From the UHGV virus genome UHGV-0247086: DNA of 60,779 nucleotides, one strand, 5' to 3'. The first letter of the stretch is position 1; each line of letters begins with the position of its first letter. Made by a program: the position numbers and the translations under genes. Source of the stretch: a virus. Shown here piece after piece: positions 12,348-33,823 of this stretch. Below the pieces are notes generated by a model, which was not told the DNA's origin, searched no databases, and saw only the letters and a program-made list of their open reading frames with translations.

Positions 12348-12728
12348 ATGTTTAACCCTGATAAATACCGTTCAGTCACCTGGCTGAAGGGCGGGCGCGT
12401 ATACCCGCAACTCGACTGTTTCGGCATTGTGAACGAGATACGCCGCGACCTGAATTTACCCGACTGGCCCGATTTTGCAGGGGTTACCAAAGACGACGGA
12501 GGCCTCGACCGGGAAGCGCGCAGGATGATGCTTACCCTTGAGCGCTGTGAACCCTGCGAAGGGGCCGGGGTGGCCTGTTATTCCGGATCAGCCGTCACCC
12601 ATGTGGGGATCGTGGTCAGTATCGATGGTCTGCTGCATGTGGCGGAATGCAATCCGAGTACGAACGTCACCTTTCTGCCGTTGCCGCGGTTTAAGCGCCG
12701 ATTTGTCAAAGTGGAGTTCTGGCAATGA
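12348..12728 (+). CDS. NlpC/P60 (C40) family tail-associated peptidase
   Basis: 126 aa with Cys in the LDCFGIV context and downstream His (THVGIV, LLHVAE), typical of the CHAP/NlpC-P60 domains of lambda K-like proteins. Confidence 0.65.
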   Translation: MFNPDKYRSVTWLKGGRVYPQLDCFGIVNEIRRDLNLPDWPDFAGVTKDDGGLDREARRMMLTLERCEPCEGAGVACYSGSAVTHVGIVVSIDGLLHVAECNPSTNVTFLPLPRFKRRFVKVEFWQ

Positions 12729-15700
12729 CCATTCGTTTTTATCCGTCCCGGCTTCCCGGAGAACCACTTGAAACGCATGAGCATGGTGTAACCAGTATTC
12801 GCAAGTGGCTGGTGGCAAATGTTGAAGGTTACGAGGATCGGGATGTTCCACCGCTGACCGTTGAGGTTGAGGGGCAGTCAATTCCGCCAGGCGAATGGGC
12901 TACTTTCGTGATCCATCCTGATAGTGATGTCCGGCTTTATCCGGTGCCTTTCGGGCTTGAGGCCGCGACAATTGCCTGGATAGGTGTGGGCATCGCCGTC
13001 GCATCTGCGGCTTATTCATTGTTCATGATGAGTAACATTGATGCTGGCGGCTACACGTCATCCACAGGGCGAAGCCTCGCCCTGAACCCGGCAAAGGCGA
13101 ATACCGCAAAACTCGGTGATGCCATTCGTGAGGTGTTTGGCCGGGTGCGTATCTACCCTGATTATGTGGTGCCGCCGGTTACCCGGTTTGATGCCGCCGA
13201 TCCTACGAAAATGCGCGTCCAGATGCTGCTGTGTCTCGGTGTCGGTGATCTGATTTATACCAATGGCGATATCCGGGTTGGCAGTACGCCAGCTTCAACG
13301 CTACCGGGATTCAGCAGCACCCATTACCCGCCAGGCGCGGACGTTTCCGGTGATGAGCGCAGCGAAAACTGGGTCAACTCCACCGAAGTGGGCGGGACGT
13401 CATCCGGCACCGGGCTGGATATGGCCCAGACGTCGCCGGACGCAGACGACATTATCGCAGACAGCATGACCGTATCCGGATCGAGCGTGACGTTTACCGG
13501 GCTGGATACGGATGATGATGACGATAATGACGAGAACGATAACGCGCTACCGCCCAGCTGGGTCGCTGGCGCAGTGGTCGAACTGAAAGCCCCGGCTAAC
13601 TACCAGATCACTTCGGCGGCTGGATACAGCGTTATCGCCAGCCCGCTGCTGACGGAGATCGCGCCGGTAGTAGGTATGCCGGTAACCCTGGGGTTTAACT
13701 CTGTCGATTACGATCTGTTTATCGCGTCATATACCCCCGGTCAGGCTGCAGTGCCCGGCGCCGGGGGGAGTGCGGCAAAACTCCAGGCCAGTGCGGCCCC
13801 GACCACCTACGACTTTTCGACCAGCTCCAGCACGTTCACGATCACCTGGCAGGGGGTTACCTACCCGGTGTCGCTGGTGGCTAACTACGTCTCGATGTCG
13901 GGACTGCTGGCGGCCATTACCGAGGGACTCACTGGCTCCGGCCTGGTTGCGCAGGACAACGGCGGCACCGTACTGATAACCGAGGCGGCCAGTCCGTTCG
14001 CGGGTGGGGCGATCACGTCCTCTTCGCTGCCAGCAGCTGTTTTCGGTGATGCTCCGGTTTACACCGCCGGCACGGCATCAACCGGCGGCAGCCCGGCGGT
14101 AACGGCAAATGTGACACTCGCCTATAACAGCGCCACGGGTACCGCGTTCTCCGGGATGCCGGAGGGGGTGCAACGGCTTTCACTTGCTCACCGCGGGAAT
14201 GAATACCGCATTGTCTCAGCCGACGGCACAACGGCGACGGTGGCGCGCCTGGTTAATGGTGCCGTTGATGAGTCATGGCCGGGATTCACCGCCCGGACGA
14301 TGATCGACTATGAGGCCACTGGTCTTAACGACACGCTGAGCTGGCTGGGGCCGTTCCTCGTATGCCCTGAAAATGAAGTGGTGGATGCGTTCGAGGTGAA
14401 TTTCTCCTTCCCGAACGGCATCTGTGGCTTTGACAGCAAGGGGAAAAAGCGGCTTCGGCATGTTGAGTGGGAGATACAGTATCGCGTCTACGGTTCCGGA
14501 TCGGGGTGGGTGAGTCACCAGGGTGAGTATGCGCTGAAAAACGTCAACGGGTTAGGTTTCACTGAGCGGATCACCCTCAGCTCTCCGGGACTGGTAGAGG
14601 TTCGCTGCCGTCGGCGCAATGAGCAGGGCTCAAACAACGCCAGGGATTCGATGTACTGGCAGGCACTGCGCGGGCGACTGCTGACGCGCCCTTCATCCTA
14701 TCCCGGCGTGTCGCTGATGGCGGTGACCGTTGAGACGGGGGGCAAATTGGCGGCTCAGTCGGACCGCCGCGTAAACGTTGTGGCCACGCGGGCCTATGAC
14801 TCAGGAACGGCCAGAACCATTTCGGGGGCGCTGCTGCATGTCGGGAACTCGCTGGGACTGGAGATGGATGTCGACACCATCAACGCGCTGGAGTCTGCAT
14901 ACTGGACGCCACGCGGCGAGTATTTCGACTTTGCTACCGGCGACAGTATCTCAGCGCTGGAAATGCTGCAGAAGATAGCCAATGCCGGGAAGTCACGTTT
15001 TCTGCTGAGTGATGGCCTGGCGACGGTCAACCGTGAGGGGATTAAGCCCTGGACTGGCGTGATCACTCCGCATGAGATGGTGGAGGAGCTGCAGAGCGGA
15101 TTTACCGTACCGTCCGACGATGATTTTGATGGCGTCGACGTGACGTACATCAACGGGACTACCTGGGCAGAGGAGACCGTTAAATGCCGGACGCCAGACA
15201 ATCCCACGCCGGTGAAAATCGAGGCCTACAAACTCGATGGTGTACTGAATCAGGATCACGCCTACCAGATCGGCATGCGTCGCCTGATGAAATACCTGCA
15301 GCAGCGGGTGACGTTCCAGACCACTACCGAGCTGGACGCGCTGTGCTACAACACGGGCGATCGCATTGTGCTCACAGATGATATTCCGGGTAACAACACG
15401 ATTTCCTGTCTGGTGGAGGCGATGACAACGGCTGGTGGCGTGACAACGTTCACCGTTACGGAGCCGCTGGACTGGTCTTTCGAAAATCCCCGGGTGCTGA
15501 TCCGCTATCAGGATGGCTCTGCACCCGGGCTGATGGTGGCGAGCAGGGTGGGTGATTTTCAGCTGTCAGTCCCGCACCTGAGCGAGTTTGATGACCCGAT
15601 GAAGGTTGACTTGTCATCGGCAACCATCGAGCCGATCCGCCTGGTGTTCTGCGGCTCAACGCGCCACGTCTACGACGCCATTGTAGAGGAGATCGCCCCG

Positions 15701-15793
15701 CAGTCTGACGGAACCTGCCAGGTCACCGCAAAAGAATACCTCGAATCGTTCTATGCCTACGACGACGCCATATACCCCGGCGACGTCGCGTAA
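12725..15793 (+). CDS. tail tip / host specificity protein (gpJ-like central fibre with gpI-like N-terminus)
   Basis: 1022 aa. N-terminal hydrophobic helix, acidic DDDDDNDENDN linker, and a large beta-rich C-terminus. Position after NlpC/P60 matches lambda I/J. Confidence 0.75.
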   Translation: MTIRFYPSRLPGEPLETHEHGVTSIRKWLVANVEGYEDRDVPPLTVEVEGQSIPPGEWATFVIHPDSDVRLYPVPFGLEAATIAWIGVGIAVASAAYSLFMMSNIDAGGYTSSTGRSLALNPAKANTAKLGDAIREVFGRVRIYPDYVVPPVTRFDAADPTKMRVQMLLCLGVGDLIYTNGDIRVGSTPASTLPGFSSTHYPPGADVSGDERSENWVNSTEVGGTSSGTGLDMAQTSPDADDIIADSMTVSGSSVTFTGLDTDDDDDNDENDNALPPSWVAGAVVELKAPANYQITSAAGYSVIASPLLTEIAPVVGMPVTLGFNSVDYDLFIASYTPGQAAVPGAGGSAAKLQASAAPTTYDFSTSSSTFTITWQGVTYPVSLVANYVSMSGLLAAITEGLTGSGLVAQDNGGTVLITEAASPFAGGAITSSSLPAAVFGDAPVYTAGTASTGGSPAVTANVTLAYNSATGTAFSGMPEGVQRLSLAHRGNEYRIVSADGTTATVARLVNGAVDESWPGFTARTMIDYEATGLNDTLSWLGPFLVCPENEVVDAFEVNFSFPNGICGFDSKGKKRLRHVEWEIQYRVYGSGSGWVSHQGEYALKNVNGLGFTERITLSSPGLVEVRCRRRNEQGSNNARDSMYWQALRGRLLTRPSSYPGVSLMAVTVETGGKLAAQSDRRVNVVATRAYDSGTARTISGALLHVGNSLGLEMDVDTINALESAYWTPRGEYFDFATGDSISALEMLQKIANAGKSRFLLSDGLATVNREGIKPWTGVITPHEMVEELQSGFTVPSDDDFDGVDVTYINGTTWAEETVKCRTPDNPTPVKIEAYKLDGVLNQDHAYQIGMRRLMKYLQQRVTFQTTTELDALCYNTGDRIVLTDDIPGNNTISCLVEAMTTAGGVTTFTVTEPLDWSFENPRVLIRYQDGSAPGLMVASRVGDFQLSVPHLSEFDDPMKVDLSSATIEPIRLVFCGSTRHVYDAIVEEIAPQSDGTCQVTAKEYLESFYAYDDAIYPGDVA

Positions 15794-15822
15794 TACCCCA
15801 TAACAACCCCTAATTAACTCTT

Positions 15823-15848
15823 TTCGCTCAAACCCTCGTTTGGGCGAA
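15823..15848. promoter_or_regulatory. putative Hin/Gin-family inversion crossover site (left), 12-2-12 palindrome
   Basis: TTCGCTCAAACC-CT-CGTTTGGGCGAA. Half-sites fit TTnTCnnAAACC of hix/gix, about 8 of 12 positions. It lies 22 bp upstream of the tail-spike A ATG. Confidence 0.55.
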
Positions 15849-15869
15849 GCCTCTTTTTGGAGCAAAAAA

Positions 15870-17822
15870 ATGGCCGAACTTAACCCGCCTTTGGGAACGA
15901 CGACGCCTGAAATATTCCTGGATAACGTCAAGCGCGCTGACGAGCTGGTTAACGGTCCAGCCGGAACGGTTAACGACCGCGGCGGTGAACCGCTCGATAC
16001 CTGGCGCCAGATGATGGCGAAAAATGATGAGATACGGCAGAACATCATTCCGCTCAGCAAGCAGTATGCGACGCTGGCAGCGGCCCAGGCGGATATAGCG
16101 AATATTCCTGTGAACTCCACAACCTACGTGCGTAGCCCGGACGGCAGTGCGCTGGCTGACGAGTACATGAATGTAGCCGGGACGCTGACTGCCACCGGGC
16201 GCAGGATGCCGTCACAGGCCTACGTTGACGGTATGCAGGGAGATATCGACTCGCTCAATCAGATGCGGATTACGTTATCAGATTCGCTGAGCGACACATG
16301 GCGGGACGACCGTGATGACAAAACAGAGGTAGTTCTGGTGGCGGATAATGCGCTAAGGAAGCTTGTCAAACTTAATATCGAAAAGCAGAAGCTGGTTGTA
16401 TTCGGGAATGAGGTTCCGCGACAGGGCGAAGTGGATGAGGCCAGGGAGGCAGGATCTGAAACATGGTCATATAACGGAAGTGATGCAGACAGAATTATCC
16501 TTCTGGCTGACAGTGCCGACCGCATTGTTCGCGAATTGCGATTATCTGAGCAGGCGGAATACCTGTTCGGTAAAAAGGTCGGCACCGGTGGTGACGCCAG
16601 TTACACCCCCCCGCAATACTGGCCTGAGTTTGTGGACTGTCGCGCATACGGACAAAGTCTTTCCATCAGCCTGAACGCTGACGCCGGAATACTCACCCCG
16701 GTAACCAACGCATTTATGTTTGATACGGGGATCGTAACGTATAACAAAACGCTTACCTCACTTGTCACTGTACCCGACACAACAACGCAGCAATACCACG
16801 ATACGAGCCTGATTCATCAGCTGGAATATGATTCGCCCGCACCAGACAGAAAGTACATGGCTGCGGCGTCTGGCGTGAGTGGTTATTCCATGGCTCAGCT
16901 CGAACCAGGGACTGAACCTTACACCCAGCTCATGTCCAGCATAGATAAAGCGGCACAGCTTGCAGCATCGGCTGGCTATCAGTACGGGTTACCAGTTCTG
17001 ACATTCTTCCAGGGGGAGGCGGATGCGTATCTCGGTAGTTCTTACTCTTACTACCGTAGAAAAATGGTTTTGATGCAGTCCTCAATCAACGACAAAGCCA
17101 AGAGTGTTTCGCGCGCAACCTCTGATATGCCGATGATTATTTATCAGATGGCGTCTCAGGGACGATATCAGGGATTAGTCAACCCGAGCTCTGATATCCC
17201 GCGCGCTCAGCTCGATGAGGCAATCAGTAACCCGCTGATTCAGTTGTGCACCCCAATGTATATTTTCCCTTATACAGACGGCGTTCATCTTACTAATCAT
17301 GGTTATCGCTGGCTTGGCCTTTTCCGCGCCAAGGCGATCCGATACTGGATGGAGAACGGAAAACCGTGGAAGCCTCTGTATCCGATCGACATTTATAAAG
17401 TTGGCTCAAATACCGTGGTGGCGGCGTTTCATGTCCCGGTCGGCAACCTTCAGTTCAGGACTGACATTGTCCCCGAACACCCGTCCGGAGCAAAGGGTTT
17501 TGAACTCTGGCAGGATGATGGAGCCGGTAATGTCACGCGGCTGACAATCTCTTCAGTGCAGATTGTTGGTCCGGACAAAGTCAAAGTTACAACGGCCTCT
17601 ACATTCACGGGCACTGTTTATCTGGCCTATGGCTGGACCCCGTTAAACCGCGGTGCATCAGATGGTGATGGCCGCTATCCGTCATGGAACGCCGGAGTCA
17701 ACAGCGGTATCTGTGGAAACCTCTGTGACTCAGACAACTCAACCACTGATCTGCATGATGCAGCTGGCAATGCGTACCAGCTGAAGAACTATTGCTGCTG
17801 CTTTTATAAGGAAGCCATCTGA
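15870..17822 (+). CDS. tail spike / tail fibre A: conserved N-terminal anchor plus SGNH/SASA-like esterase-type C-terminal domain
   Basis: ATG 15870 with RBS GGAG. The first ~95 aa are near-identical (protein and DNA) to the minus-strand gene 21879..23831. FFQGEADA and LTNHGYRW motifs suggest SGNH/sialate-O-acetylesterase-like chemistry. Confidence 0.75.
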   Translation: MAELNPPLGTTTPEIFLDNVKRADELVNGPAGTVNDRGGEPLDTWRQMMAKNDEIRQNIIPLSKQYATLAAAQADIANIPVNSTTYVRSPDGSALADEYMNVAGTLTATGRRMPSQAYVDGMQGDIDSLNQMRITLSDSLSDTWRDDRDDKTEVVLVADNALRKLVKLNIEKQKLVVFGNEVPRQGEVDEAREAGSETWSYNGSDADRIILLADSADRIVRELRLSEQAEYLFGKKVGTGGDASYTPPQYWPEFVDCRAYGQSLSISLNADAGILTPVTNAFMFDTGIVTYNKTLTSLVTVPDTTTQQYHDTSLIHQLEYDSPAPDRKYMAAASGVSGYSMAQLEPGTEPYTQLMSSIDKAAQLAASAGYQYGLPVLTFFQGEADAYLGSSYSYYRRKMVLMQSSINDKAKSVSRATSDMPMIIYQMASQGRYQGLVNPSSDIPRAQLDEAISNPLIQLCTPMYIFPYTDGVHLTNHGYRWLGLFRAKAIRYWMENGKPWKPLYPIDIYKVGSNTVVAAFHVPVGNLQFRTDIVPEHPSGAKGFELWQDDGAGNVTRLTISSVQIVGPDKVKVTTASTFTGTVYLAYGWTPLNRGASDGDGRYPSWNAGVNSGICGNLCDSDNSTTDLHDAAGNAYQLKNYCCCFYKEAI

Positions 17823-18580
17823 TGCCGTATCTATTCACTCGCCTTAATTTTGAAGTCCCGTTTTCCGGTGCGGAATATCTGAATGAGTCTGACGTCAGCC
17901 GGGTGATCTCAGCGGTGACTCCGCAGCCTGGCTTCTTCAACTGGTTGTTTGGCGGCTCATCCGCCAGCCTGACCTCTTATGACGGAGCACACGTCATGAC
18001 GCAGGCAGATGCGTCGCTAACGAAAACCTATGGTGATACTTACGTACAGCTACCTGCCAGTGCGGGCACACTGAAAAATGGCCTCCAGACTGAATGGGGA
18101 GATACCAGCATTTATACCTGGTGTACTGTCATTCAGTATTCCGGAGCTGCTTCTCAGGTGCTTGGCGGGGCAACGGATAACTCGACAGGTGAAGCTGTGC
18201 AGATGTCCTCTGCAGGTGCGATTGTTTTTGCCTATAAAGAAAGCGGCACGGGCACTACCAAAGCGCAGGCAATACCGGTTCCGGCCGGGCTGAGCGCGGG
18301 AGCCAATATTTTTATCGGTGTCACCCGCAGTGGAAGCAATCTGACGGCATTTGTTGGCGGAGCATCGACTAAGCTCGCGCTTACAGCGGCAAAAAATGCC
18401 AACGCAGCGTTGAAAATTGGTCCCGGCAATACATCGTATACAGGCGCGTCAGGCTACTCTAAAGAGCTTCGCTGTTATGAGTTCCTGTATTCAACCAATG
18501 CAGTGTCTGCTTCAGATCTGGATAGTATCTACGCCGCGGCAAAAGAGCGCTGTGCGGCGAGGGGGATCAGCGTTCTGTAA
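17822..18580 (+). CDS. LamG-like (concanavalin A-like lectin) domain protein, partner of tail spike A
   Basis: ATGA overlap with the tail-spike stop. C-terminal ELRCYEFLYSTNAVSASDLDSIY matches the LamG DxxRIYNRALSxxEI signature. Confidence 0.6.
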   Translation: MPYLFTRLNFEVPFSGAEYLNESDVSRVISAVTPQPGFFNWLFGGSSASLTSYDGAHVMTQADASLTKTYGDTYVQLPASAGTLKNGLQTEWGDTSIYTWCTVIQYSGAASQVLGGATDNSTGEAVQMSSAGAIVFAYKESGTGTTKAQAIPVPAGLSAGANIFIGVTRSGSNLTAFVGGASTKLALTAAKNANAALKIGPGNTSYTGASGYSKELRCYEFLYSTNAVSASDLDSIYAAAKERCAARGISVL

Positions 18581-18592
18581 ATTCTGTAGCAT

Positions 18593-18619
18593 GCGGCTGT
18601 CAATTTATTCGACAGCCGC
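18593..18619. terminator. bidirectional hairpin terminator between convergent tail-spike cassettes
   Basis: GCGGCTGTC-AATTTATTC-GACAGCCGC, a 9-bp perfect stem flanked by A/T runs. Confidence 0.65.
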
Positions 18620-18647
18620 AATATTCACTTTTCAGCAAGTCTGTGAA

Positions 18648-19204
18648 TTACAGGGTATAGGTACTGATTGCATAGGAGGTAACCGAAGCGATTTCTTCCG
18701 CTGTCAGAATGCGTTCCCATATGACCATTTCAGCAAACTGCGGTCCAGTATTGGATGAGCCTCCCGGGTCTTTACCAAACCGTAACCGTCGCTGTTCATC
18801 CGCCGAACCACCACGGGTGATGATCCCTGAAACACTAACAGCGGATGATCCCGCGCCGATTAATCTTAACGTAACTGCGGCAGCGCTATCAGCAGGGATG
18901 GTCAGAACAGCAGCATATCGACGAGCTGAAATAGCCACACCTCCCGCTGCCGGATCGTTGGAAACGCTAAGTGTTGTACCAGCAGCACCGGACATTTTTG
19001 ACAGGCCCCAGCTGGCGCTTGCCCGGCTGAACCGCAATCCTCCGATGGTCAGAATGGAGTGAGATGCGGAGCCATGAACCTCATACCATACTGCAAGCAG
19101 ACTGACATCACCGAATTTGCGGTTAATGTCCGTCAGTGCTGCCTGCGCCCCTGTAATGGCACAGTCGACCATACGAACACCTGACTGATCGACAATCATC
19201 GGCC
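18648..19204 (-). pseudogene. C-terminal part of LamG-like partner gene of tail spike B, separated from its 5' part by the IS66 insertion
   Basis: C-terminal FAEMVIWERILTAEEIASV LamG signature. It is in frame with 21931..21675 once the IS and one TSD copy are removed. Confidence 0.6.
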
Positions 19205-19249
19205 GATTGGTGGTAAGCGTGCAGCGAGAACCGTATTGACGGGGATGTG

Positions 19250-20788
19250 TTATTCAGTTGGCAGTGCTACGCGCCAGGGGAGTAGTTCGCTGACCCGGTT
19301 TATCGGCCAGTCAGCAATGACGTCAAGGACATAACGGAGGTAGCTTTCTGGCTCCACTCCGTTCAGTTTGCATGTCCCGATCAGGCTGTACAGCAGCGCT
19401 CCCCGCTCTCCTCCATGATCCGAACCGAAGAACAGGTAGTTTTTGCGGCCCAGGCTGACCATCCGTAGCGCATTCTCAGCTATGTTGTTATCTGCCTCGG
19501 CCCAGCCGTCGTCAGTATAGTAAGCCAGCGCCGGCCACTGGTTCAGTACGTACGTGAACGCTTTCGCCAGTTCTGAGTGTCGCGACAGCGTTTTCACCTT
19601 TTCACGCAGCCAGCTTTCCAGGGATTTCAGCCGCGGTTTAGCTTTTTGCTGACGTTCTGCAAGGCGTCGCTTCGCCGGCATCCCCCTTATTTCCGCCTCG
19701 ATGGCATATAACTCACCGATCCGTTTCAGGGCTTCCTCCGTCAGCGCTGACGGGGTGCGAACGTGCACATCGTGGATCTTGCGGCGGGCATGAGCCCAGC
19801 AGGCAGCTTCCGTTATCTGTCCATTGCGGTACAGTTCGTTGAACCCGGCGTACGCATCCGCCTGCAGAACACCGCTGAAGCCAGCGAGATGGCTCTGCGG
19901 GTGGATACCTTTTCTGTCCGGGCTGTAAGCGAACCACACTGCCGGCGCCAGCTCTGACCCGGCGTTACGGTCGTCACGAACGTAGGTCCATAACCGCCCG
20001 GTCTTCGTTTTCTTATTACCTGGCAACAGCACCGGGACAGGCGTGTCATCAGCATGGAGCTTACCGTCAGTCAGGACATAGTCCTGAAGCGCCCCTTCCA
20101 GCGGTGACAGTAGCCGGCAACACGCATCCACCCAGCCCGACAGCAGTGAGCGGCTCAGCTCCACACCCTGGCGGCCGTATATTTCAGACTGGCGATACAG
20201 CGGGGTGTGCTCTGCATACTTTGAACTCAGCACGCGGGCCAGCAGCCCCGGTCCTGCGATACCCCGCTCGATGGGCCGTGAAGGCGCGGGGGCCTGCACG
20301 ATGGCATCGCACTGAGTACAGGCATGCTTTTCACGTACTGTCCGGATAACCCGGAAGGCGCTGCGCATCAGCTCCAGCTGTTCGGCGGCATCTTCACCCA
20401 GGTAACTCAGCGCACCACCACATTCCGGGCAGCATGACGCTGCCGGCAGCAGCCGTTTTTCGTCACGGGGAAGTGATTCAGGGAACGGTTTGCGGGTACG
20501 GGTCTGCCGCAGCGGGCGCTGCACGGCCGGGTCATCCACCCGGCCGGTAAGGGTATCGCTTTCTTTCTGCAACTGCTTAAGGTCGGCTTCCATCTGCGCG
20601 ATACGGCGGGAGACTTTTTCGGAGCGGCTGCCGAAGTTCATCCGGCGCAGCTTATCCAGTTGCGCCTGCAGGTGATCTATTTCGCGTTCACGCTCGTTCA
20701 GCTTTTCCAGAAGGGCACGGTTCAGCGCCTCCTGTTCGGCAAGGAGACGTTTCAGTTCATCGATATTGTCAGGAAGTAAGCTGTTCAT
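19250..20788 (-). CDS. IS66 family transposase TnpC (orf3)
   Basis: 512 aa with an N-terminal leucine zipper (LKRLLAEQEALN) and the CPECGG zinc motif typical of IS66 TnpC. Confidence 0.85.
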   Translation of the reverse strand: MNSLLPDNIDELKRLLAEQEALNRALLEKLNEREREIDHLQAQLDKLRRMNFGSRSEKVSRRIAQMEADLKQLQKESDTLTGRVDDPAVQRPLRQTRTRKPFPESLPRDEKRLLPAASCCPECGGALSYLGEDAAEQLELMRSAFRVIRTVREKHACTQCDAIVQAPAPSRPIERGIAGPGLLARVLSSKYAEHTPLYRQSEIYGRQGVELSRSLLSGWVDACCRLLSPLEGALQDYVLTDGKLHADDTPVPVLLPGNKKTKTGRLWTYVRDDRNAGSELAPAVWFAYSPDRKGIHPQSHLAGFSGVLQADAYAGFNELYRNGQITEAACWAHARRKIHDVHVRTPSALTEEALKRIGELYAIEAEIRGMPAKRRLAERQQKAKPRLKSLESWLREKVKTLSRHSELAKAFTYVLNQWPALAYYTDDGWAEADNNIAENALRMVSLGRKNYLFFGSDHGGERGALLYSLIGTCKLNGVEPESYLRYVLDVIADWPINRVSELLPWRVALPTE

Positions 20789-20836
20789 ACCGGGTATATT
20801 ACCAGGCTCATTCAGCGTCGACCAGGATAAAGAGGC

Positions 20837-21184
20837 CTACAACATAGTCAGTGACGTAAGCAGTCTTTTAGGCTGCCGCCAGTCGATACCTTCAAGGAGC
20901 ATCGCCAGCTGTGCCGGTGTGAGGAACACTTTGCCATCCCGGGCTGACGGCCAGGCGAAGCGGCCGCGCTCCAGCCGTTTGGTCAGCAGACACAGTCCAT
21001 CGCCGGTAGACCAGAGGAGCTTTACCTGACTGCCATTACGCCCACGGAAGATAAAAACGTGACCTGACATCGGATCGTCTTTCAGCGTCGTCTGCACCTT
21101 TGCCGCCAGGCCGTTGAAGCCGTTTCTCATATCGGTGATGCCAGCGACCAGCCAGATCTTTGTCCCTGATGGTAATGGGATCAA
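20837..21184 (-). CDS. IS66 family accessory protein TnpB (orf2)
   Basis: 115 aa, by recall matching IS66 Orf2. Confidence 0.8.
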   Translation of the reverse strand: MIPLPSGTKIWLVAGITDMRNGFNGLAAKVQTTLKDDPMSGHVFIFRGRNGSQVKLLWSTGDGLCLLTKRLERGRFAWPSARDGKVFLTPAQLAMLLEGIDWRQPKRLLTSLTML

Positions 21185-21585
21185 CGTTTGAGCTCCCGTA
21201 TCAGCAGGTTCAGGATATTTTCGCTGATGGCACCATTCAGACGGAGTGATCCGTGCCGGAACGTCACTTCACAGCTGATATTGAGTGATTCAGGTGCCGC
21301 AGCAGCTACAGGTTGTGACCGGGGGGAGGTTGCAGGGACAACATCTTCGGCATCAAGTGTTATCGGGAGCAGCTCAGGCACGTTGTTTTCTGTTGTTGAA
21401 GGAGGACGTAGTTTTCCTTCGCGCCAGTACTGGCGCCACTTGAACAGCAAATTATCGTTGATCCCATGCTCACGAGCGAGTTGCGCTACGGAGATCTCTG
21501 GTCGATGCGAGAGTTCAACCATTTTGATTTTGAACTCAACAGGATAATTAGGGCTTTTTTTACGCACTGCGGTTAATGATTTCAT
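21181..21585 (-). CDS. IS66 family accessory protein TnpA (orf1)
   Basis: 134 aa HTH protein overlapping tnpB by an ATGA, as in IS66 elements. Confidence 0.75.
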   Translation of the reverse strand: MKSLTAVRKKSPNYPVEFKIKMVELSHRPEISVAQLAREHGINDNLLFKWRQYWREGKLRPPSTTENNVPELLPITLDAEDVVPATSPRSQPVAAAAPESLNISCEVTFRHGSLRLNGAISENILNLLIRELKR

Positions 21586-21674
21586 GGATAGCGTCCACCA
21601 TATTTGGTGTCCACTATCCTCTCAGGAATATCAGGATCTGCCAGACGGTGCTGAGACGACGCTTACGATTGGTG

Positions 21675-21931
21675 GTGTCACCCACAAGGATGTTATCCGG
21701 CATCAGTGGGCTGGGATACGTGGATACCGCATCACCGACTGCGCTGGTCGCAAAATCCAGCGCCGGGCGCCAGCGGTCGGTATAACCGGTCACGCCGATG
21801 GCGGGAGCGTAAGGTGCATAATTTTTAATGGACGGGTCAGGACTGGTCAGGCTGCCTGGTACAATTTCAAGGGTCATATCAAACACTCCGGTAAATAGCG
21901 GCAAGGCTGGTGTAATGTGCATTGGTGGCAC
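21675..21931 (-). pseudogene. N-terminal part of LamG-like partner gene of tail spike B, interrupted by IS66
   Basis: ORF from ATG 21931 runs into the IS left end at 21666. The reading frame resumes at 19204 after the IS. The ORF-track 105-aa protein continues into IS sequence. Confidence 0.55.
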
Positions 21932-23831
21932 GCGGACAGGTCAGCGGGTTTTGCATACGGTCAGACATGCGGATATAGCTCAGGAACTCGCCCGGCTGGG
22001 AGGAGCCATACACCGGCCAGTTAAACGCCCCGGCAGGCAACGCCCCGATGATGTCGTCCTGCTGGCTGTCAAAAATCGCCAGGCGGTGCAACAGCGTGTC
22101 GATATAGTCCTGGCGAGGTTCGGCAAACATGTAGGCAATCGCCGGAGCGTAGGACAACTCGCCAACAGGCTCCCTCCAGTCCATACTCCACACCGAACCA
22201 TCCGGGTTGTAAGCCAGCGCCCGCATGGTGTCGGCCATATGCCAGAGGGCTGCCGATGGCACCGGCTTCCCGGCCAGCAGGAAGGTGCGTAACATCCACT
22301 CGCTACCTGACAATGACGCCATCGTGTACCAGCGGGACACGTCCTGTCCGTCAGCGACGCCGTGGTTTTCAACGAGGCGGGTCGGGTTAACGTTTGTCCC
22401 GTTCATGACGTCGCAGGGTGCCAGGCCGTTAATGGTCATCGTCTCGGAAAGGTCGTTTCTGTCACCCAGCGCCGCAATCTGCATTGTAATCATCCGCTCG
22501 GCCCAGCGCTCGGCATTGGCATTATCCGGGGCTATAGTCAGCGCGCGGGCGAGAATGCCGAGGTTCCATGCCAGTTCTTCTGATTTGGAATCGCCTGTCG
22601 GGTAATTATCCGTCACCTGCCCCCGGATATCAGGGCGCGTCCAACGGTATTTGGGCGTGTACTTCAGAAAGCGGTTAGCCTCATGTACCACCATTGCGGC
22701 GACTTTTATTTTCTGACCTTCCGCCAGGTGTGCGCCCATCAGGTCGCAGTGGCTGGCCACATTACGCGCCAGCTCTGCCGCCTGTGAGCCAAAGGTCACT
22801 GCCACATCTTCAGAGGCTTCGCTCCACGGCGGCGGCGGGCCTCCCCACCAACCACCGTTTGCCAGATGCGCACTCACCACCAAATCCAGCCCCTGCACAA
22901 TCCAGGAAACCGCTGTGTCATAACTGACGCCAATAAACGTTTCGTCCCAGGTGGCGTAACCAGCATCACACCAGCTTATCCAGTGAACTACTGCGGCCAG
23001 CATCAGCGGGTATTGCTCTATGCTGTCCATCGTCGAGCCAGTGACTGGAAGCCCGGCTCCGCCAGCCAGGGGAACCCACGTCGGCACCCACGTTGAAAGC
23101 ATGTATTTACAGGCACGCTCGGCGAGTGGCTCGACTGCCGCGCGTACTGATGCGGGTAGCGGCGTGAGGACCATTTCAGGACGTTGATTCACCGATTGCC
23201 GGGCGCGACGATTGAGCGGCGGAAGGTAGCTAAGGCGGCCTGACTGATCGACCTCCAGCAAAACAACCCCATCTTTGACAATCGCGTGACCTGCCTGGAT
23301 ATCGGCCGGATCAAGGTCATAGACTGCGACGCCTTTGGCTGCGTATGCTGCGACGTTTTCAGGCGCTGGCAATCCGTCCATTCCCTGAAGAGTACCCGGC
23401 AGTAATTCCCCGCTGGACATAACCTTTCCCCAGGCGTAAGTCACACCGTCAGAGTATTCATCTGTTCGTCTTACGGCTGTCTTTCCAGAAATCATGGTTC
23501 TTCCTGTAGGTTGCAGTACGCCTCCAGTGTTTTTGTACTCAATAGCCAGATAAGCATCATCAGAACTGCGCACATACGTGGTGCTGCCCTCAGGGATATT
23601 CGCGATATCCGCCTGCGCAGCCTCAATCGTCATGTACTGCTTGCTGAGAGGAATTATGTTCTGCCGAACTTCGTCATTCTTAGCCATCATCTGGCGCCAG
23701 GTATCGAGCGGTTCGCCTGCGCGGTCGTTAACCGTTCCGGCCGGACCGTTAACCAGCTCGTCAGCGCGCTTGACGTTATCCAGGAATATTTCAGGCGTCG
23801 TCGTTCCCAAAGGCGGGTTAAGTTCGGCCAT
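21879..23831 (-). CDS. tail spike / tail fibre B: same N-terminal anchor as A, different Trp-rich alpha-helical glycanase/lyase-like C-terminal domain
   Basis: 650 aa. The first ~95 aa are near-identical to gene A and diverge after residue ~100. It lies inside the putative invertible segment in opposite orientation. Confidence 0.75.
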   Translation of the reverse strand: MAELNPPLGTTTPEIFLDNVKRADELVNGPAGTVNDRAGEPLDTWRQMMAKNDEVRQNIIPLSKQYMTIEAAQADIANIPEGSTTYVRSSDDAYLAIEYKNTGGVLQPTGRTMISGKTAVRRTDEYSDGVTYAWGKVMSSGELLPGTLQGMDGLPAPENVAAYAAKGVAVYDLDPADIQAGHAIVKDGVVLLEVDQSGRLSYLPPLNRRARQSVNQRPEMVLTPLPASVRAAVEPLAERACKYMLSTWVPTWVPLAGGAGLPVTGSTMDSIEQYPLMLAAVVHWISWCDAGYATWDETFIGVSYDTAVSWIVQGLDLVVSAHLANGGWWGGPPPPWSEASEDVAVTFGSQAAELARNVASHCDLMGAHLAEGQKIKVAAMVVHEANRFLKYTPKYRWTRPDIRGQVTDNYPTGDSKSEELAWNLGILARALTIAPDNANAERWAERMITMQIAALGDRNDLSETMTINGLAPCDVMNGTNVNPTRLVENHGVADGQDVSRWYTMASLSGSEWMLRTFLLAGKPVPSAALWHMADTMRALAYNPDGSVWSMDWREPVGELSYAPAIAYMFAEPRQDYIDTLLHRLAIFDSQQDDIIGALPAGAFNWPVYGSSQPGEFLSYIRMSDRMQNPLTCPRATNAHYTSLAAIYRSV

Positions 23832-23853
23832 GTTTTTTGCTCCAAAAAGAGGC

Positions 23854-23879
23854 TTCGCCCAAACGAGGGTTTGAGTGAA
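23854..23879. promoter_or_regulatory. putative Hin/Gin-family inversion crossover site (right), inverted copy of the left site
   Basis: TTCGCCCAAACG-AG-GGTTTGAGTGAA. Its reverse complement differs from the left site at one position and has the same CT core. It lies 22 bp upstream of the tail-spike B start. Confidence 0.55.
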
Positions 23880-23922
23880 AGAGCAAAGCTTTTTACAATC
23901 AGCAATTTCAAAGGGTTACAAC

Positions 23923-24471
23923 ATGCTGATTGGCTATGCACGCGTCTCTACAGGGGATCAAAACCTCGATTTACAGAAAAACGCGCTGATCCGCGCAGAA
24001 TGTGAGCTGGTTTTCGAGGATATGGCCAGCGGGAAGAATGCCCGGCGGCCAGGGTTAAAGCGAGCGCTGCGACGGCTCCGCCCGGGTGATGTGCTGGTGG
24101 TCTGGAAACTGGACCGGCTGGGCCGCAGCGTGCGCGATCTGATTACGCTCGTATCGGAGCTGCAGGCGCGCGGGGTGAATTTTCGCAGCCTTTCCGACAG
24201 CATCGATACCAGTACGCCAGCAGGCCGCTTTTTCTTCCACGTCATGAGCGCCCTGGCGGAAATGGAGCGCGAGCTGATCGTCGAGCGTACCCGCGCCGGT
24301 TTAGCCGCTGCTAGGGAGCAGGGGAGAGTCGGCGGCCGCCGTCGGGTAATGACTGAAGAAGTGGTGGAGCGCTGCCGCAGGATGCTGGATACGGGCGCTA
24401 CGCGGCAGCAGGTAGCCGATGTAATAGGTGTAGACGTGAAAACAATCTACAAGTACCTCCCGGCGACTTGA
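23923..24471 (+). CDS. serine-recombinase DNA invertase (Hin/Gin/Cin/Pin family)
   Basis: MLIGYARVSTGDQ, the catalytic Ser motif, and a C-terminal HTH. Collinear with Hin by recall. Positioned immediately outside the right inverted repeat. Confidence 0.9.
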   Translation: MLIGYARVSTGDQNLDLQKNALIRAECELVFEDMASGKNARRPGLKRALRRLRPGDVLVVWKLDRLGRSVRDLITLVSELQARGVNFRSLSDSIDTSTPAGRFFFHVMSALAEMERELIVERTRAGLAAAREQGRVGGRRRVMTEEVVERCRRMLDTGATRQQVADVIGVDVKTIYKYLPAT

Positions 24472-25258: not shown

Positions 25259-25496
25259 AGTTTGCTCACCTGCGAACCGTATGCAAGAGATCGCAGGTGA
25301 GCAATTCGCTATGAGGGCATTGCCATAGCTGAAAAATTTTAACCTCGCATTATTCGCAAAACCATCAAACAGCTAAAGCCTGAATACACTTTAAGACTTA
25401 CCTTACTCGTTACATCAATGTGTTACGGCAATGACATAAATTGATAGCCAGAACCTATATTGATCTGTCGCTCTGTTAAAACTACTGTATATAAAA

Positions 25497-26812
25497 GGGT
25501 CTTCCCTTGTTGTGGTGGCTGAAGGCATGATAATGGCGTATTAAATCGCCAGAGGTCACCACCATGGACGAAAAGTCCCTCTATGCACATATCCTCAACT
25601 TGTCAGCTCCGTGGCAGGTAAAGTCTCTTTCTCTCGATGAAAATGCCGCTTCTGTTACCGTTACTGTCGGAATCGCTGAAAATACTCAGTTAACCTGTCC
25701 AGCCTGCGGGAAATCCTGCCCCGTTCACGATCACCGGCATCGTAAATGGCGCCACCTCGATACCTGCCAGTTCGCCACGATAGTTGAAGCCAGTGTGCCC
25801 CGTGTTATGTGTCCGAAGCATGGATGCCAGACTTTGCCTGTTCCGTGGGCGGGGCCCGGCAGCCGGTATACGCTGCTGTTCGAATCATTCGTGCTTTCAT
25901 GGCTGAAAATCAGCACTGTTGATGCGGTCAGGAAACAACTCAAACTGAGCTGGAATGCCGTTGACGGCATTATGACCCGCGCGGTTAAACGAGGTCTTGC
26001 ACGCATAAAAAAGCCGTTAGCAGCCCGGCATATGAATGTGGACGAGGTCGCTTTTAAAAAAGGACATCGTTATATAACGGTGATCTCCGATCGTGACGGG
26101 CGGGCGCTGGCTTTAACGGATGATCGAGGTAAGGAAAGTCTTGCCGGTTACCTCAGAACCCTGACTGACGGACAGCTGCAGGCCATTAAAACGCTCTCAA
26201 TGGACATGAATGCGGGCTATATAAGAGCCGCGCGCATCCACTTACCGTGTGCAGTTGATAAAATCGCCTTTGACCGCTTCCACGTAGCGAAACAGCTGGG
26301 TGAGGTGGTGGATAAAACCCGCCAGAATGAACATCCCCGTCTTCCGGTTGAAAGCCGCCGTCAGGCCAAAGGTACCCGCTTCCTGTGGCAGTACAGCGAC
26401 AAATGGATGACTGAGTCCCGGCAGAAAAAGCTGATGTGGCTGCGGGAACAGATGCAGCAGACAAGCCAGTGCTGGACACTGAAAGAGCTGGCCAAAAATA
26501 TCTGGGATCGCCCCTGGAGCACAGAACGCAGGAATGACTGGTTGCAGTGGATATCGCTGGCGTCTCAATGTGATGTGCCGATGATGAAAAACGCAGCGAA
26601 AACCATCAAAAAACGGTTATATGGAATACTGAATGCGATGCATCATCGTGTCTCGAATGGTAATGCAGAGGCGCTGAACAGCAAGATCAGACTGCTGAGA
26701 ATAAAAGCCAGAGGATACAGGAACCGGGAGCGCTTTAAGCTGGGAGTGATGTTCCACTATGGAAAACTGAATATGGCGTTCTGAGTCTTCCCACCATGAT
26801 CGGGGAAGACCC
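25497..26812 (+). mobile_element. ISL3-family insertion sequence (1316 bp) with 8-bp TSD ATATAAAA, inserted into the umuDC LexA operator
   Basis: Terminal IRs GGGTCTTCCC...GGGAAGACCC. TSD at 25489-25496 and 26813-26820. Removing the IS and one TSD copy restores TACTGTATATAAAAACAGTG. Confidence 0.85.
25564..26784 (+). CDS. ISL3 family transposase
   Basis: 406 aa with an N-terminal zinc-finger (CPACGK...CPKHGC) and a DDE domain. Confidence 0.85.
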   Translation: MDEKSLYAHILNLSAPWQVKSLSLDENAASVTVTVGIAENTQLTCPACGKSCPVHDHRHRKWRHLDTCQFATIVEASVPRVMCPKHGCQTLPVPWAGPGSRYTLLFESFVLSWLKISTVDAVRKQLKLSWNAVDGIMTRAVKRGLARIKKPLAARHMNVDEVAFKKGHRYITVISDRDGRALALTDDRGKESLAGYLRTLTDGQLQAIKTLSMDMNAGYIRAARIHLPCAVDKIAFDRFHVAKQLGEVVDKTRQNEHPRLPVESRRQAKGTRFLWQYSDKWMTESRQKKLMWLREQMQQTSQCWTLKELAKNIWDRPWSTERRNDWLQWISLASQCDVPMMKNAAKTIKKRLYGILNAMHHRVSNGNAEALNSKIRLLRIKARGYRNRERFKLGVMFHYGKLNMAF

Positions 26813-26823
26813 ATATAAAAACA

Positions 26824-28745
26824 GTGTGCGCCGGGAGACCGGTAGAGATCAAGGGGTGAAAGTCCCCGACCATTGAAGGACCAGCAATCCACAAGGTCCC
26901 CGAGTCATGCGTTGCATACCGCGAGGTATGGGGCGAAGCGTTGACAGGGGTGTTGACAGGCCAGCCATTGAGCCACGAAATGTATATTAAATTACCGGGT
27001 GCCGACGTTGTACTGTTAACGGAAGGCAACATCATAGGGTGCGATACTGCGAGTGCCACATGGACCCGGCGGGGTCTGAGACCCTGGCATGTCAATACGA
27101 TCTCTACGCGGGAACCGGGAGATCTCCCCTCTGACCATCTGCCAGTGTCGGGGATGGCCCGCACCGGGAAGACGAGGAGTCATAGCCGGTGATGTACGGA
27201 GAGGAGAAGTCGGACTCGCTCATAGTAGCGGCGAAGCAGGCGAACAACCCGAAAGGAGCGGAGTCAGTGGAGCGAAGGAGCGGGGCCAAGGGGAACGCGG
27301 AACAGCCACACATGCGCCGGACACAGAGCCGGGAAAGCATGTCACAGAGGCTGTCACGCGTGCGGGAAGCTGCGAAGCAGCGGAAGAAAGAACGGTTTAC
27401 AGCATTGTTCCACCTGCTGACAGTCGAAGCACTGGAAGCCGCATTCCTCTCCCTGAGCAGGAAAGCGGCCGCCGGAGTGGATGGCATCAGGTGGATGGAC
27501 TACGCCGGAAACATGAAGAACAACATAACAGATCTGCACCGGAGGCTACATCAGGGCAGCTACAGGGCGCAGCCCGGCAGGCGTCACTACATCCCAAAAG
27601 CGGATGGAAAACAACGCCCGCTCGGCATCGCCTCGCTGGAGGACAAGATCGTCCAGTATGCGCTGGTGAAAATCCTGAACGCAGTCTATGAAAACGACTT
27701 TATGGGGTTCTCATACGGGTTCAGACCCGGGCGAAGCCAGCACGATGCACTGGACGCACTGGCCACAGGGCTGGTACGCACTAACGTAAACTGGGTACTG
27801 GATGCCGACATCAGTCAGTTCTTTGACAGGGTGAGCCATGAATGGCTGATCAGGTTCACAGAGCATCGGATCGGCGACCGGAGGGTAATCAGGCTCATAC
27901 GTAAGTGGCTCACAGCCGGGACGTCGGAGGAGGGTCAATGGCGAGCAACGGAGGAAGGCACCCCACAGGGTGCGGTCATCTCACCGCTGCTGGCAAACAT
28001 ATACCTCCACTACGTCTTCGATCTGTGGGCGCATCAGTGGCGACGTCGCTATGCCACAGGCAATGTGGTAATGGTCAGATACGCCGATGACATCGTCATC
28101 GGGTTCGACAAACGATACGATGCCCGGCGCTTCCGTATAGCCATGCAGCGCAGACTGAGGGAGTTCGGACTCACGGTTCACCCGGAGAAAACCCGTCTGA
28201 TGGAGTTCGGCCGCTTCGCTGCCGAAAACCGTGCCATCAGGGGAAAAGGCAAACCAGAAACGTTCAACTTCCTCGGGTTCACGCACATCAGCGGGAAAGA
28301 TCGCAACGGCAGGTTCATGCTGATACGAAAGACCCGCCGGGATCGGATGACGGCAACTCTGAAAGCCATCAAAGACGGTCTGCGAAGGCGCTGGCATTAC
28401 TCAATCCCCGAACAGGGAAAATGGCTCAGGAGAGTGGTTCAGGGATACCTGAACTATCACTCGGTACCGGGCAACTTCCCCACCATGCAGAAGTTCAGGA
28501 CACACGTAACAAACCTCTGGCGCCGGGCGCTCAGGCGCAGGAGCCAGAAGGATGATACGACCTGGACGAAAGCAAACAAACTGGCAGCCGCATGGCTACC
28601 AGGGGTTCGGGTTCTTCATCCATGGCCTGTGGAGCGGTTCACCGCCAGACACCCGAGGCAGGAGCCCGGTGCGTAAATCGCGCACGCCGGGATCTGTGCG
28701 GGGGGTATCCGGTAACGGGTATCCCTACCGCGACATTAATCTGAG
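26824..28745 (+). mobile_element. bacterial group II intron (5' end GUGUG/GUGCG at 26824-26830; 3' end uncertain), sense to umuDC
   Basis: GTGYG 5' end, intron-encoded RT/maturase ORF, and a 34-nt DV-like hairpin (14 bp, 2-nt bulge, GUAA loop) at 28698-28731 just after the ORF. Confidence 0.7.
27189..28676 (+). CDS. group II intron-encoded reverse transcriptase/maturase (no endonuclease domain evident)
   Basis: RT motifs ([29 protein letters not shown]) including YADD, followed by a maturase X-like region. The true start is probably internal. Confidence 0.85.
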
Positions 28746-28756
28746 CGAGTCAATTA

Positions 28757-29175
28757 TGCAGTTTTACACGCCCGTTGAGTTACGTGAGATCATGCTGATC
28801 CCGTTGTACAGTGACCTTGTGCAATGTGGTTTTCCAAGCCCTGCACAGGATTATGTTGAGCAACGTATCGATCTGAACGAGTTGCTCATTAACCACCCCA
28901 GTGCGACGTATTTTGTCAAAGCCGCCGGCGACAGCATGAAAGACGCCGGCATAGGGGAAGGGGATCTTCTGGTTGTGGATAGCTCAAGGACAGCAGTTCA
29001 TGGCGATATCGTTATTGCTGCTGTGGATGGGGAATTTACCGTTAAGAAGCTGCAGCTGCATCCGCGGGTTCAGCTTAACCCAATGAACCCTGCATATTCG
29101 CCGATAGTCGTGGGTAGCGAGGATACTCTCGATGTGTTCGGGGTCGTAACTTACATCATCAAATCGGCTGGCTGA
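28757..29175 (+). CDS. umuD: translesion DNA polymerase V accessory subunit UmuD (LexA-like S24 peptidase)
   Basis: Collinear with UmuD by recall: N-terminal [23 protein letters not shown], and the catalytic Ser (GDSM) and Lys (VKKL). Confidence 0.9.
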
Positions 29176-29176
29176 G

Positions 29177-30442
29177 ATGTTTGCACTTTGCGATGTGAAC
29201 TCATTTTATGCATCGTGCGAGACCGTATTTCGTCCTGACCTGAAAGGGCGTCCGGTGGTCGTCCTGTCAAACAACGACGGCTGCGAGATCGCCCGTTCAC
29301 AAGAGGCAAAGCCCTTTGTCAAAATGGGCGAGCCTTATTTCAAGCAAAAGGACATGTTTCGCCGGCACGGTATTATCGCGTTTAGCAGCAACTATGAGCT
29401 TTATGCCGATATGTCCAACCGAGTGATGACAACGCTGGAGGAACTCTCTCCACGCTGCGAAATTTACAGTATTGATGAGGCATTTTGCGATCTTACAGGT
29501 GTGCGTAACTGTCGCGATCTTACCGACTTTGGCAGAGAAATTCGCGAGACAGTTCTGCGTAGGACGCACCTCACGGTCGGCGTCGGCATAGCCCAGACTA
29601 AAACCCTGGCGAAGCTGGCCAATCATGCTGCGAAACAGTGGCAGCTACAGACCGGAGGAGTGGTGGATCTGTCTAATCTTGAAAGGCAGAGGAAGTTGAT
29701 GGCTTTGCTGCCGGTGGATGAGGTCTGGGGCGTCGGGCGCCGCATCAGTAAAAAACTTGAGGCCATGGGGATTAAAACTGTGCTGCAGTTGGCGGATACC
29801 GATATCCGTTTTATCCGGAAGCATTTCAACGTCGTGTTGGAAAGAACTGTGCGGGAGCTGCGCGGCGAACCATGCCTTGGCCTTGAGGAGTTCGCGCCGG
29901 TAAAGCAGGAAATCGTGTGCAGCCGTTCGTTCGGCGGCCGTATCACTGAATACCATGAGATGAGGCAGGCGATATGCAGCTACGCCTCACGTGCCGCGGA
30001 GAAACTCCGTGGTGAGCACCAGTATTGCGGATTTATCTCCGCATTTGTCAAAACCAGCCCCTTTGCGCTGAACGAGCCGTACTATGGGAACAGCGCATCG
30101 GTAAAGCTGTTAACCCCAACGCAAGACAGCAGGGACATAATCACCGCAGCGACCAAATGCCTCGATGTAATCTGGCGAGAGGGGCATCGCTATCAGAAAG
30201 CAGGCGTTATGCTGGGGGATTTCTACAGTCAGGGCGTGGCCCAGCTCAACCTCTTCGACGACAACGCACCACGGAAGAATAGCGAGAAACTGATGGAAGT
30301 TCTCGACCATCTCAATGCGAAAGGCGGAAGAGGAACTCTGTATTTTGCAGGGCAGGGGATCCAGACTGCCTGGCAGATGAAGCGGGAAATGCTTTCGCCT
30401 CGGTACACCACGAGATACAGTGACTTGATACATGTGAGATGA
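29177..30442 (+). CDS. umuC: translesion DNA polymerase V catalytic subunit UmuC (Y-family polymerase)
   Basis: MFALCDVNSFYASCE Y-family N-terminus, 421 aa, immediately downstream of umuD. Confidence 0.9.
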   Translation: MFALCDVNSFYASCETVFRPDLKGRPVVVLSNNDGCEIARSQEAKPFVKMGEPYFKQKDMFRRHGIIAFSSNYELYADMSNRVMTTLEELSPRCEIYSIDEAFCDLTGVRNCRDLTDFGREIRETVLRRTHLTVGVGIAQTKTLAKLANHAAKQWQLQTGGVVDLSNLERQRKLMALLPVDEVWGVGRRISKKLEAMGIKTVLQLADTDIRFIRKHFNVVLERTVRELRGEPCLGLEEFAPVKQEIVCSRSFGGRITEYHEMRQAICSYASRAAEKLRGEHQYCGFISAFVKTSPFALNEPYYGNSASVKLLTPTQDSRDIITAATKCLDVIWREGHRYQKAGVMLGDFYSQGVAQLNLFDDNAPRKNSEKLMEVLDHLNAKGGRGTLYFAGQGIQTAWQMKREMLSPRYTTRYSDLIHVR

Positions 30443-30544
30443 TAAGTTAAATGACGGGAATGAGTTATGAGCAAGGTGTGGACATGGATACACTAGTACT
30501 CAGGGCATGATATAAAACTGTGAGTTCTATAAATTAAATAACAT

Positions 30545-31282: not shown

Positions 31283-31349
31283 ATATAAATTATTATGCAG
31301 TTTATCAACTGCATAATGGTGTAGGATGTAGTTAAAAAACGGTAGGGGG

Positions 31350-33814: not shown

Positions 33815-33823
33815 AAAAACCCC

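Follow-up and report, generated by a model that had tools for sequence, protein, structure and literature searches.

We report that the 60,779-nt phage sequence UHGV-0247086 (the whole stretch analysed here, called the window below; all coordinates refer to it) most probably carries a site-specific inversion switch of the Gin/Hin family, which swaps receptor-binding cassettes as complete units and not just the C-termini of fibres. We put the probability of this reading at about 0.8. Two inverted 26-bp crossover sites enclose two opposed cassettes: cassette A, next to a J-like tail tip gene, and cassette B, next to an intact serine invertase gene that lies just outside the right site. Each cassette carries its own leader, ribosome-binding site, ATG, spike gene and lectin-like partner gene; because the site is located in the 5' leader, complete genes would be exchanged. 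The nearest DNA relatives of the window are Klebsiella prophages and phages, and the host phage is a temperate lambda-like Klebsiella siphophage. The same segments occur naturally in both orientations across related phages, and from these related loci the segment of this particular phage is predicted to invert as well. A whole-gene switch of the Gin/Hin type had been suggested in an earlier reading of this stretch (the original prediction), and it was supported at the family level by 54 loci and four inversion pairs.

Occurrence of both orientations in related phages

A scan of IMG/VR with the invertase yielded 80 loci (invertases 87-99% identical), and the invertase was conserved and intact in about 80 loci. 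From the IMG/VR loci, two GenBank phages and the window, we assembled a CT-core set of 54 loci with exactly two sites, named after the central dinucleotide of the site. One site was always found 43 nt upstream of the invertase ATG; the second lay 5.3-8.4 kb away in the opposite orientation and, in 52 of the 54 loci, 26-29 nt past the stop codon of the J-like open reading frame (ORF). The core was CT in 108/108 site copies, and positions 1-3, 5, 8-19 and 22-26 were invariant. Each of the 108 sites was followed after 20-23 nt by the ATG of a spike of 583-1360 aa, and the cassettes consisted of a spike plus a partner of 225-300 aa or of a single long spike. The 108 spikes fell into 56 C-terminal types, and most of the recurrent types (18/22) were found in both the J-proximal and the invertase-proximal position. 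For example, the cassette with the SASA-type spike is J-proximal in the window and invertase-proximal in Klebsiella phage KPP5665-2 and in locus L128.

Inversion itself was seen in four pairs of loci (L086/L087, L090/L103, L089/L106 and L111/L122). In these pairs the flanks were collinear and the segments, 5.3-5.9 kb long and 93-99% identical, lay in opposite orientation with breakpoints running from site to site. A further candidate pair, L003/L128, was rejected as the two loci proved to be collinear. Throughout the family, the sequence outside the sites was strictly position-specific, and the leaders and cassettes inside were equally distributed over both positions. We also considered a crossover inside the leader. 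When all 108 leaders were tabulated, every variant occurred equally at both positions, so this candidate was rejected and a crossover at the core was kept.

Such rearrangements might also be produced by RecA-dependent homologous recombination between the inverted repeats, the invertase and the palindromes being incidental. The repeat of the window, about 345 bp at 85-100% identity, would be sufficient for this. However, a repeat of that length is exceptional within the family: the median inverted repeat is 70 nt, which makes homologous recombination a poor explanation, and the members of the inversion pairs share only about 54 nt. Furthermore, position-specific sequence gives way to position-independent sequence at the 26-bp site, the site is invariant amid variable surroundings, and the invertase has remained conserved and intact as described above. 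We consider RecA-dependent inversion very improbable. The repeat of about 330 bp to which the original prediction had drawn attention is thus present in the window, but it is not general in the family.

Crossover sites, repeats and leaders of the window

The window contains exactly two copies of the 26-bp site (0 and 1 mismatch) in opposite orientation, against a chance expectation of 0. Both share the core CT, one on the + and one on the - strand, and the sole mismatch between them lies in the outer half-site, the half that would stay in place upon inversion. The left site is located 29 nt past the J stop codon and 21 nt before the ATG of spike A; the right site is located 22 nt from the ATG of spike B and 43-44 nt from that of the invertase. 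The inverted repeats consist of a pair at 15822-15869/23833-23880 (48 nt, 98% identity) and a pair at 15864-16167/23534-23837 (304 nt, 85%). In a gapped alignment, the two arms differed by one 1-nt indel in the leader, were nearly identical to about codon 45 and decayed beyond it, and the homology between them ended at the outer edge of the 26-bp site.

The anatomy given in the original prediction was largely recovered. Two opposed 650-aa spike genes with unrelated C-termini, long inverted repeats over leader and N-terminus, inverted CT-core sites with one mismatch, a J-like gene ending at 15793 and a Hin/Gin-like invertase gene 44 bp outside the right site had all been claimed and were all found; the claimed distance of 22 bp from site to ATG agrees with the 21 and 22 nt that we measured for the left and the right site, respectively. 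The fixed late tail operon closes with the J-like gene, which is not part of the switch, and the tail genes upstream of J are all on the + strand. The features of the region are listed in Table 1.

Table 1. Features of the switch region, from the J-like gene to the invertase gene
Feature	Coordinates	Strand	Remarks
J-like tail tip / central fibre gene	12725..15793	+	1022 aa; Pfam FNIII-A_GpJ and Phage-tail_3; phrog_469 tail protein, E 4e-296
Left (J-proximal) crossover site	15823..15848		TTCGCTCAAACC-CT-CGTTTGGGCGAA, 12-2-12
Left inverted-repeat arm	15823..16167		site, leader and first ~99 codons of spike A
Cassette A leader	15849..15869	+	T-run and GGAG ribosome-binding site; within segment, moves with cassette
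Spike A	15870..17822	+	650 aa; anchor and predicted SASA/SGNH-type esterase domain; J-proximal
Partner A	17822..18580	+	252 aa; concanavalin/LamG-like lectin fold; start overlaps spike A stop codon
GC-rich hairpin between convergent cassettes	18592..18620		-21.4 kcal/mol (+), -23.3 kcal/mol (-), z about -4
Partner B, 3' part	18648..19212	-	gene split by insertion sequence; weak phrog_4390 match
ISKpn24	19213..21666	-	IS66 family, 2454 bp; tnpA, tnpB, tnpC
Partner B, 5' part	21675..21877	-	ATG 1 nt past spike B stop codon
Spike B	21879..23831	-	650 aa; same N-terminal anchor, helical Trp-rich C-terminal domain; distal position
Right inverted-repeat arm	23534..23879		from repeat search and gapped alignment
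Right (invertase-proximal) crossover site	23854..23879		read on - strand: TTCACTCAAACC-CT-CGTTTGGGCGAA
Invertase promoter-like sequence	23871..23899	+	TTGAGT-17-TACAAT; consensus scan
Gin/Hin-family serine DNA invertase	23923..24471	+	182 aa, intact
Candidate recombinational enhancer	23953..24012	+	invertase gene nt 31-90; synonymous variation suppressed

Each site, together with the T-run of the adjoining leader (15822-15860 and 23842-23880), scored as an intrinsic terminator with a 12-bp stem, -17.8 kcal/mol and a z-score of -3.4, and the T-run was present in every leader variant of the CT-core family. A second small hairpin is possible within the leader, where CCUC can pair with the GGAG ribosome-binding site. 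We speculate that the site hairpin and T-run may insulate the cassettes from transcription that is not antiterminated. Between the cassettes, the original prediction had placed a convergent bidirectional terminator. The stable hairpin exists (18592-18620), but it has no U-tract on either strand and the terminator scan made no call there. Consensus scans found no sigma-70-like promoter directed into the distal cassette from the right, and no promoter-like sequence at the segment ends.

Invertase and its candidate enhancer

The invertase belongs to the Gin/Hin/Cin/Pin family of serine recombinases. It matched Pfam Resolvase (E 2e-49) and HTH_7 as well as the DNA invertases of phrog_125, and it aligned with Mu Gin (PDB 4m6f) over residues 1-181 at about 65% identity (E 7e-71). 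The Ser9 region and the MLIGYxRVST motif of the N-terminus are conserved, and the C-terminal helix-turn-helix is present. In its outer half, the right site overlaps with the -35 hexamer of the promoter-like sequence in front of the gene, and the TACAAT of this sequence was conserved across related loci. Given this overlap, autoregulation would be possible; autoregulation is known for cin and gin.

Synonymous constraint was analysed in 82 distinct invertase genes over 161 contiguous 20-codon windows and compared with 20000 random codon sets. Synonymous variation had its minimum at codons 11-30 (nt 31-90; rank 1/161), and 0/20000 random sets were as low, indicating that a discrete cis element is embedded in the invertase gene. 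The constrained stretch sits about 87-146 bp from the crossover point and is probably a recombinational enhancer. Both gin and hin carry a Fis-bound enhancer in the corresponding 5' part of the invertase gene.

Spikes and partner proteins

The two spikes have a common N-terminal anchor of about 100-130 aa and differ in the C-terminal domains. Spike A just exceeded the Pfam cut-off for SASA (24.9 bits vs 24.8) and contains GQS at 261, QGEAD at 381 and DGVH at 470, which we take to correspond to the SASA/SGNH motifs GQS (with the Ser nucleophile), QGE.D and D..H. On the basis of this threshold match and the motifs, spike A is predicted to be a SASA/SGNH-type carbohydrate esterase. It belongs to the tail fibres of phrog_4201 (E 1e-158), was 95% identical to GP22 of KPP5665-2, and was not related by sequence to any PDB entry. 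Esterase fibres of the SGNH type rank among the most frequent receptor-binding proteins in Klebsiella prophages, and for two of them esterase activity has been demonstrated (PMC13123978). The C-terminus of spike B is helical and rich in Trp (18 W in 450 aa). Its head probably adopts an alpha/alpha-toroid fold; as spike B had no Pfam or NCBIfam match and the structural model reached a pLDDT of 57, this prediction is limited to the fold class.

Partners A and B showed no mutual similarity in BLASTP, though both match phrog_4390. The module of partner A (17822-18580) also resembled, at about 25% identity (E 5e-11), the C-terminal part of four short spikes of 434-515 aa (in L142, L085, L088 and L092), which implies that the module is sometimes fused directly to the N-terminal anchor.

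The common anchor also bears on a static arrangement, in which both cassettes would be expressed, the distal one from a promoter of its own, giving two spikes per virion, and the invertase would be a relic. It is common for Klebsiella phages to have more than one receptor-binding protein, and multi-spike Klebsiella phages or CBA120-like phages could serve as a model; in addition, promoter scans are crude. However, the N-terminal anchor common to both spikes implies one docking site, and no promoter-like sequence directed into the distal cassette was detected in the scans. Moreover, the same segments are found in both orientations in nature, and the sites, the invertase and the constrained 5' element are under purifying selection. 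Thus a static two-spike arrangement seems to us highly unlikely.

Interruption of cassette B by ISKpn24

Cassette B is broken in its partner gene by ISKpn24, and an intact partner is present in cassette A only. The insertion (19213-21666) has the features of the IS66 family, namely tnpA-tnpB-tnpC, terminal repeats GTAAGCG and a perfect 8-bp target duplication (GATTGGTG, at 19205-19212 and 21667-21674), and its products matched Pfam DDE_Tnp_IS66, TnpB_IS66 and HTH_Tnp_1. This copy was 99.6% identical to annotated copies of ISKpn24. As the duplication is perfect and the element is so close to other copies, the insertion looks recent. When ISKpn24 was removed in silico, 21877-21675 was joined to 19212-18648 and a partner B ORF of 255 aa was restored. 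The original prediction had overlooked the insertion. Its statement that each cassette has its own partner therefore holds for cassette A and not for the split partner of cassette B, and the "8.06 kb" that it gave for the invertible segment has to be corrected to a native length of 5595 bp, since the 2454 bp of ISKpn24 make up 30% of that figure.

With partner B interrupted by ISKpn24, this phage is probably handicapped in the flipped state. A rival reading is a decaying switch: inversion may persist, with cassette B inactivated by ISKpn24 and the phage locked to cassette A by selection, so that flipped virions would be without a working receptor-binding complex. The clean insertion with its 8-bp duplication and restorable 255-aa ORF is consistent with such decay, and so is the assembled genome (coverage about 2380x), which has cassette A facing J. 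Other states of decay are seen in relatives. Truncated spikes occur in L091 and L122, and Klebsiella phage ST846-OXA48phi9.2 (MK416022) retains the J-proximal site only, together with a 40-aa remnant annotated as 'Hin recombinase'; in that phage the switch seems to have decayed and to be locked. However, the window retains an intact spike B ORF, two intact sites and an intact invertase, the insertion looks recent, and the partner is perhaps dispensable, many cassettes consisting of one long spike without any partner. Decay in this phage is a real possibility, which we rate somewhat short of an even chance, and it would qualify rather than exclude a whole-gene inversion switch as the best explanation.

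Apart from the high coverage, we noted that the window sequence is probably a circular or terminally redundant assembly.

Observations weighing against the inversion switch

Several observations weigh against the inversion switch proposed here. Firstly, the inversion pairs are not isogenic, their flanks being 88-98% identical, so that they document past inversion and not its rate. Secondly, in L086/L087 and L090/L103 the invertase-proximal leader begins with GCCTC (5 nt) with either cassette, a pattern that hints at extra recombination or conversion within the leader, although it is absent from the tabulation of the whole family. Thirdly, this phage was assembled in a single orientation, and no second contig with its switch proteins was found: a search for a flipped-junction contig by exact match to the invertase and the two spike proteins yielded the source contig (ENA ERZ807520 NODE_2) and no other. 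Furthermore, the promoter and terminator calls are consensus matches that were no commoner than in shuffled sequence, and for this reason silence of the distal cassette is weakly supported. A scan with a degenerate 15-mer for Fis was uninformative, as it gave many matches in this gene and in Mu gin alike; within it, only the distal gin-homologous 15-mer (nt 71-85) was well kept. Finally, with partner B broken by ISKpn24, the switch may be functionally one-sided in this phage.

Proposed mechanism

In the lysogen, the invertase gene would be weakly expressed, driven by the promoter of its own beside the right site. The enzyme would pair both sites, cut at the CT core and rotate the strands, so that the whole segment flips. 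The late transcript coming from J would then cross the left site and express whichever cassette faces J, and the other cassette would be antisense to this transcript, presumably with no promoter of its own. A population of lysogens could thus release virions of two receptor specificities, which would have the tail and the spike anchor in common but carry different enzymatic heads and lectin partners. As the segment is now oriented, cassette A with its predicted SASA/SGNH esterase would be expressed and cassette B is presumed silent; the flipped state would yield spike B with a truncated partner, and transcription would continue into ISKpn24. We infer that catalysis takes place at the CT core, that the reaction depends on Fis and an enhancer, that the distal cassette is silent and that host range is affected.

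Comparison with known inversion systems

The Gin system of phage Mu resembles that of the window in several respects. In both, the invertase gene follows closely on the outer side of the right site (54 nt in Mu vs 43 nt here), the segment contains two opposed cassettes, each with a fibre gene and an accessory gene, and the outcome is, or would be in the window, an alternative host range. Mu gix, taken from the Mu genome, is TTATCCAAAACC-TC-GGTTTACAGGAA, a 12-2-12 site with a non-palindromic core; the site of the window has the same geometry and matches it at 15/24 half-site positions. However, the left gix/G boundary lies 509 nt inside gene S, so that a constant N-terminus remains outside and C-termini are swapped, whereas the left site of the window is intergenic, between the J stop codon and the spike ATG. 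The contrast that the original prediction had drawn with Mu, C-termini only vs whole genes, thus agrees with the Mu genome. Further differences from Mu are that the segment contains the N-terminal anchor in two copies, that the phage belongs to the lambda-like siphoviruses, and that the cassettes encode predicted enzymatic spikes in place of fibres of the Mu type.

Serine invertases of the same family flip tail-fibre segments in P1 (C segment, Cin), e14 (P segment, Pin) and p15B (Min), with sites within the fibre coding region. P1 has long inverted repeats of about 0.6 kb inside the cix sites, which resemble the 345-bp repeat of the window; in p15B six sites allow sub-segments to be shuffled, vs exactly two sites in the window. 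In Salmonella, Hin belongs to the same invertase family and acts on sites of the same architecture, flipping a promoter relative to fixed genes and so alternating two surface proteins. The arrangement in the window is the mirror image of this, since the genes flip relative to a fixed upstream operon; by consensus scan, the segment carries complete genes and not a promoter for fixed flanking genes.

The closest invertases found outside Klebsiella/Raoultella, at 78-81% identity, are from Pectobacterium (L010 and L059). Carotovoricin Er, with its tail-fibre inversion by Ein, is a product of the same genus. According to PMC13195805, inversion alters the killing range of carotovoricin Er (Nguyen et al., 2001, cited therein), and the conserved upstream block overlaps the first half of the fibre gene, i.e. 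the layout is intragenic; carotovoricin is moreover a contractile tailocin and not a siphophage. A further parallel was reported from an independent experiment on a K. pneumoniae prophage, where an inversion of about 5 kb beside a DNA invertase covers fibre genes (bioRxiv 10.64898/2025.12.17.694638). Possibly, that prophage carries an element of the kind described here.

A sister class of Klebsiella prophage loci has the core TG in place of CT (L107, L116, L117, L123, L131, L133, L136, L140, L141, L144, L146, L147, L150, L154, L156-L158, L160, L163, L164, L008 and L009). The site of this class is TTCGCGTAAACC-TG-GGTTCAGGCGAA. Its half-sites are nearly the same as those of the window, the invertases are 87-95% identical to that of the window, and the invertase is equally distant from the right site. 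However, the left site lies inside an ORF of 700-920 aa, 450-660 nt from its start, and the segments are 3.5-4.8 kb long, which corresponds to classical C-terminal switching. The class of the window is a close derivative of this classical layout, in which the site has its place in the 5' leader and each cassette has its own copy of the anchor. As close invertases serve a whole-gene layout in one class and an intragenic layout in the other, the CT-core and TG-core classes should be useful for studying the evolution of such switches.

Implications for Klebsiella phages

The mechanism itself is textbook, and the CT-core whole-gene layout is widespread in Klebsiella prophages. In a literature search whose scope left out most subscription journals, we found no published description of a whole-gene inversion layout. 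The announcement of KPP5665-2 does not mention the arrangement, and a 2026 survey of receptor-binding proteins from 8,105 Klebsiella prophages is silent on both inversion and recombinases (PMC13123978).

A broader reading can be offered tentatively, at somewhat less than even odds. Temperate siphophages of Klebsiella/Raoultella may share an undescribed dock into which any complete receptor-binding cassette with a site-plus-leader of about 50 nt can be plugged and then toggled, the Gin-type site having moved from inside the fibre gene to the 5' leader, where it may also act as an insulator by its hairpin and T-run. If this were true, each prophage would have a choice of two capsule specificities out of the dozens in a pool, which could explain the frequent mismatch between prophage receptor-binding proteins and the capsule type of the lysogen.

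Capsule type is the main barrier to infection by Klebsiella phages, and prophage receptor-binding proteins are mined for specificity prediction, therapeutic phages and enzymes. The whole-gene layout, its wide spread and the dozens of interchangeable cassettes bear on the prediction of host range. If the family expresses only the cassette that faces J, the spike annotated in a prophage need not match the spike of the virion, and a silent cassette would blur genome-wide associations between prophage proteins and the host K-locus. In the same case, the site-plus-leader would be a portable dock of natural origin, at which receptor-binding modules could be exchanged as a whole.

Other features of the window

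The packaged genome carries a second insertion sequence at 25472-26828, with its transposase at 25564-26784 on the + strand. It is ISL3-like and 99.4% identical to copies of the ISCfr12 family. Beyond this element, the sequence as far as 27400 was about 90% like the neighbourhoods of ISKox3 or of a group II intron (ltrA). Between the invertase and the integrase (about 27000-34000, from the gene calls of L004/L166) lies cargo that comprises umuD/umuC-like genes (Peptidase_S24 and IMS), a gene with an SRAP domain, and RecT.

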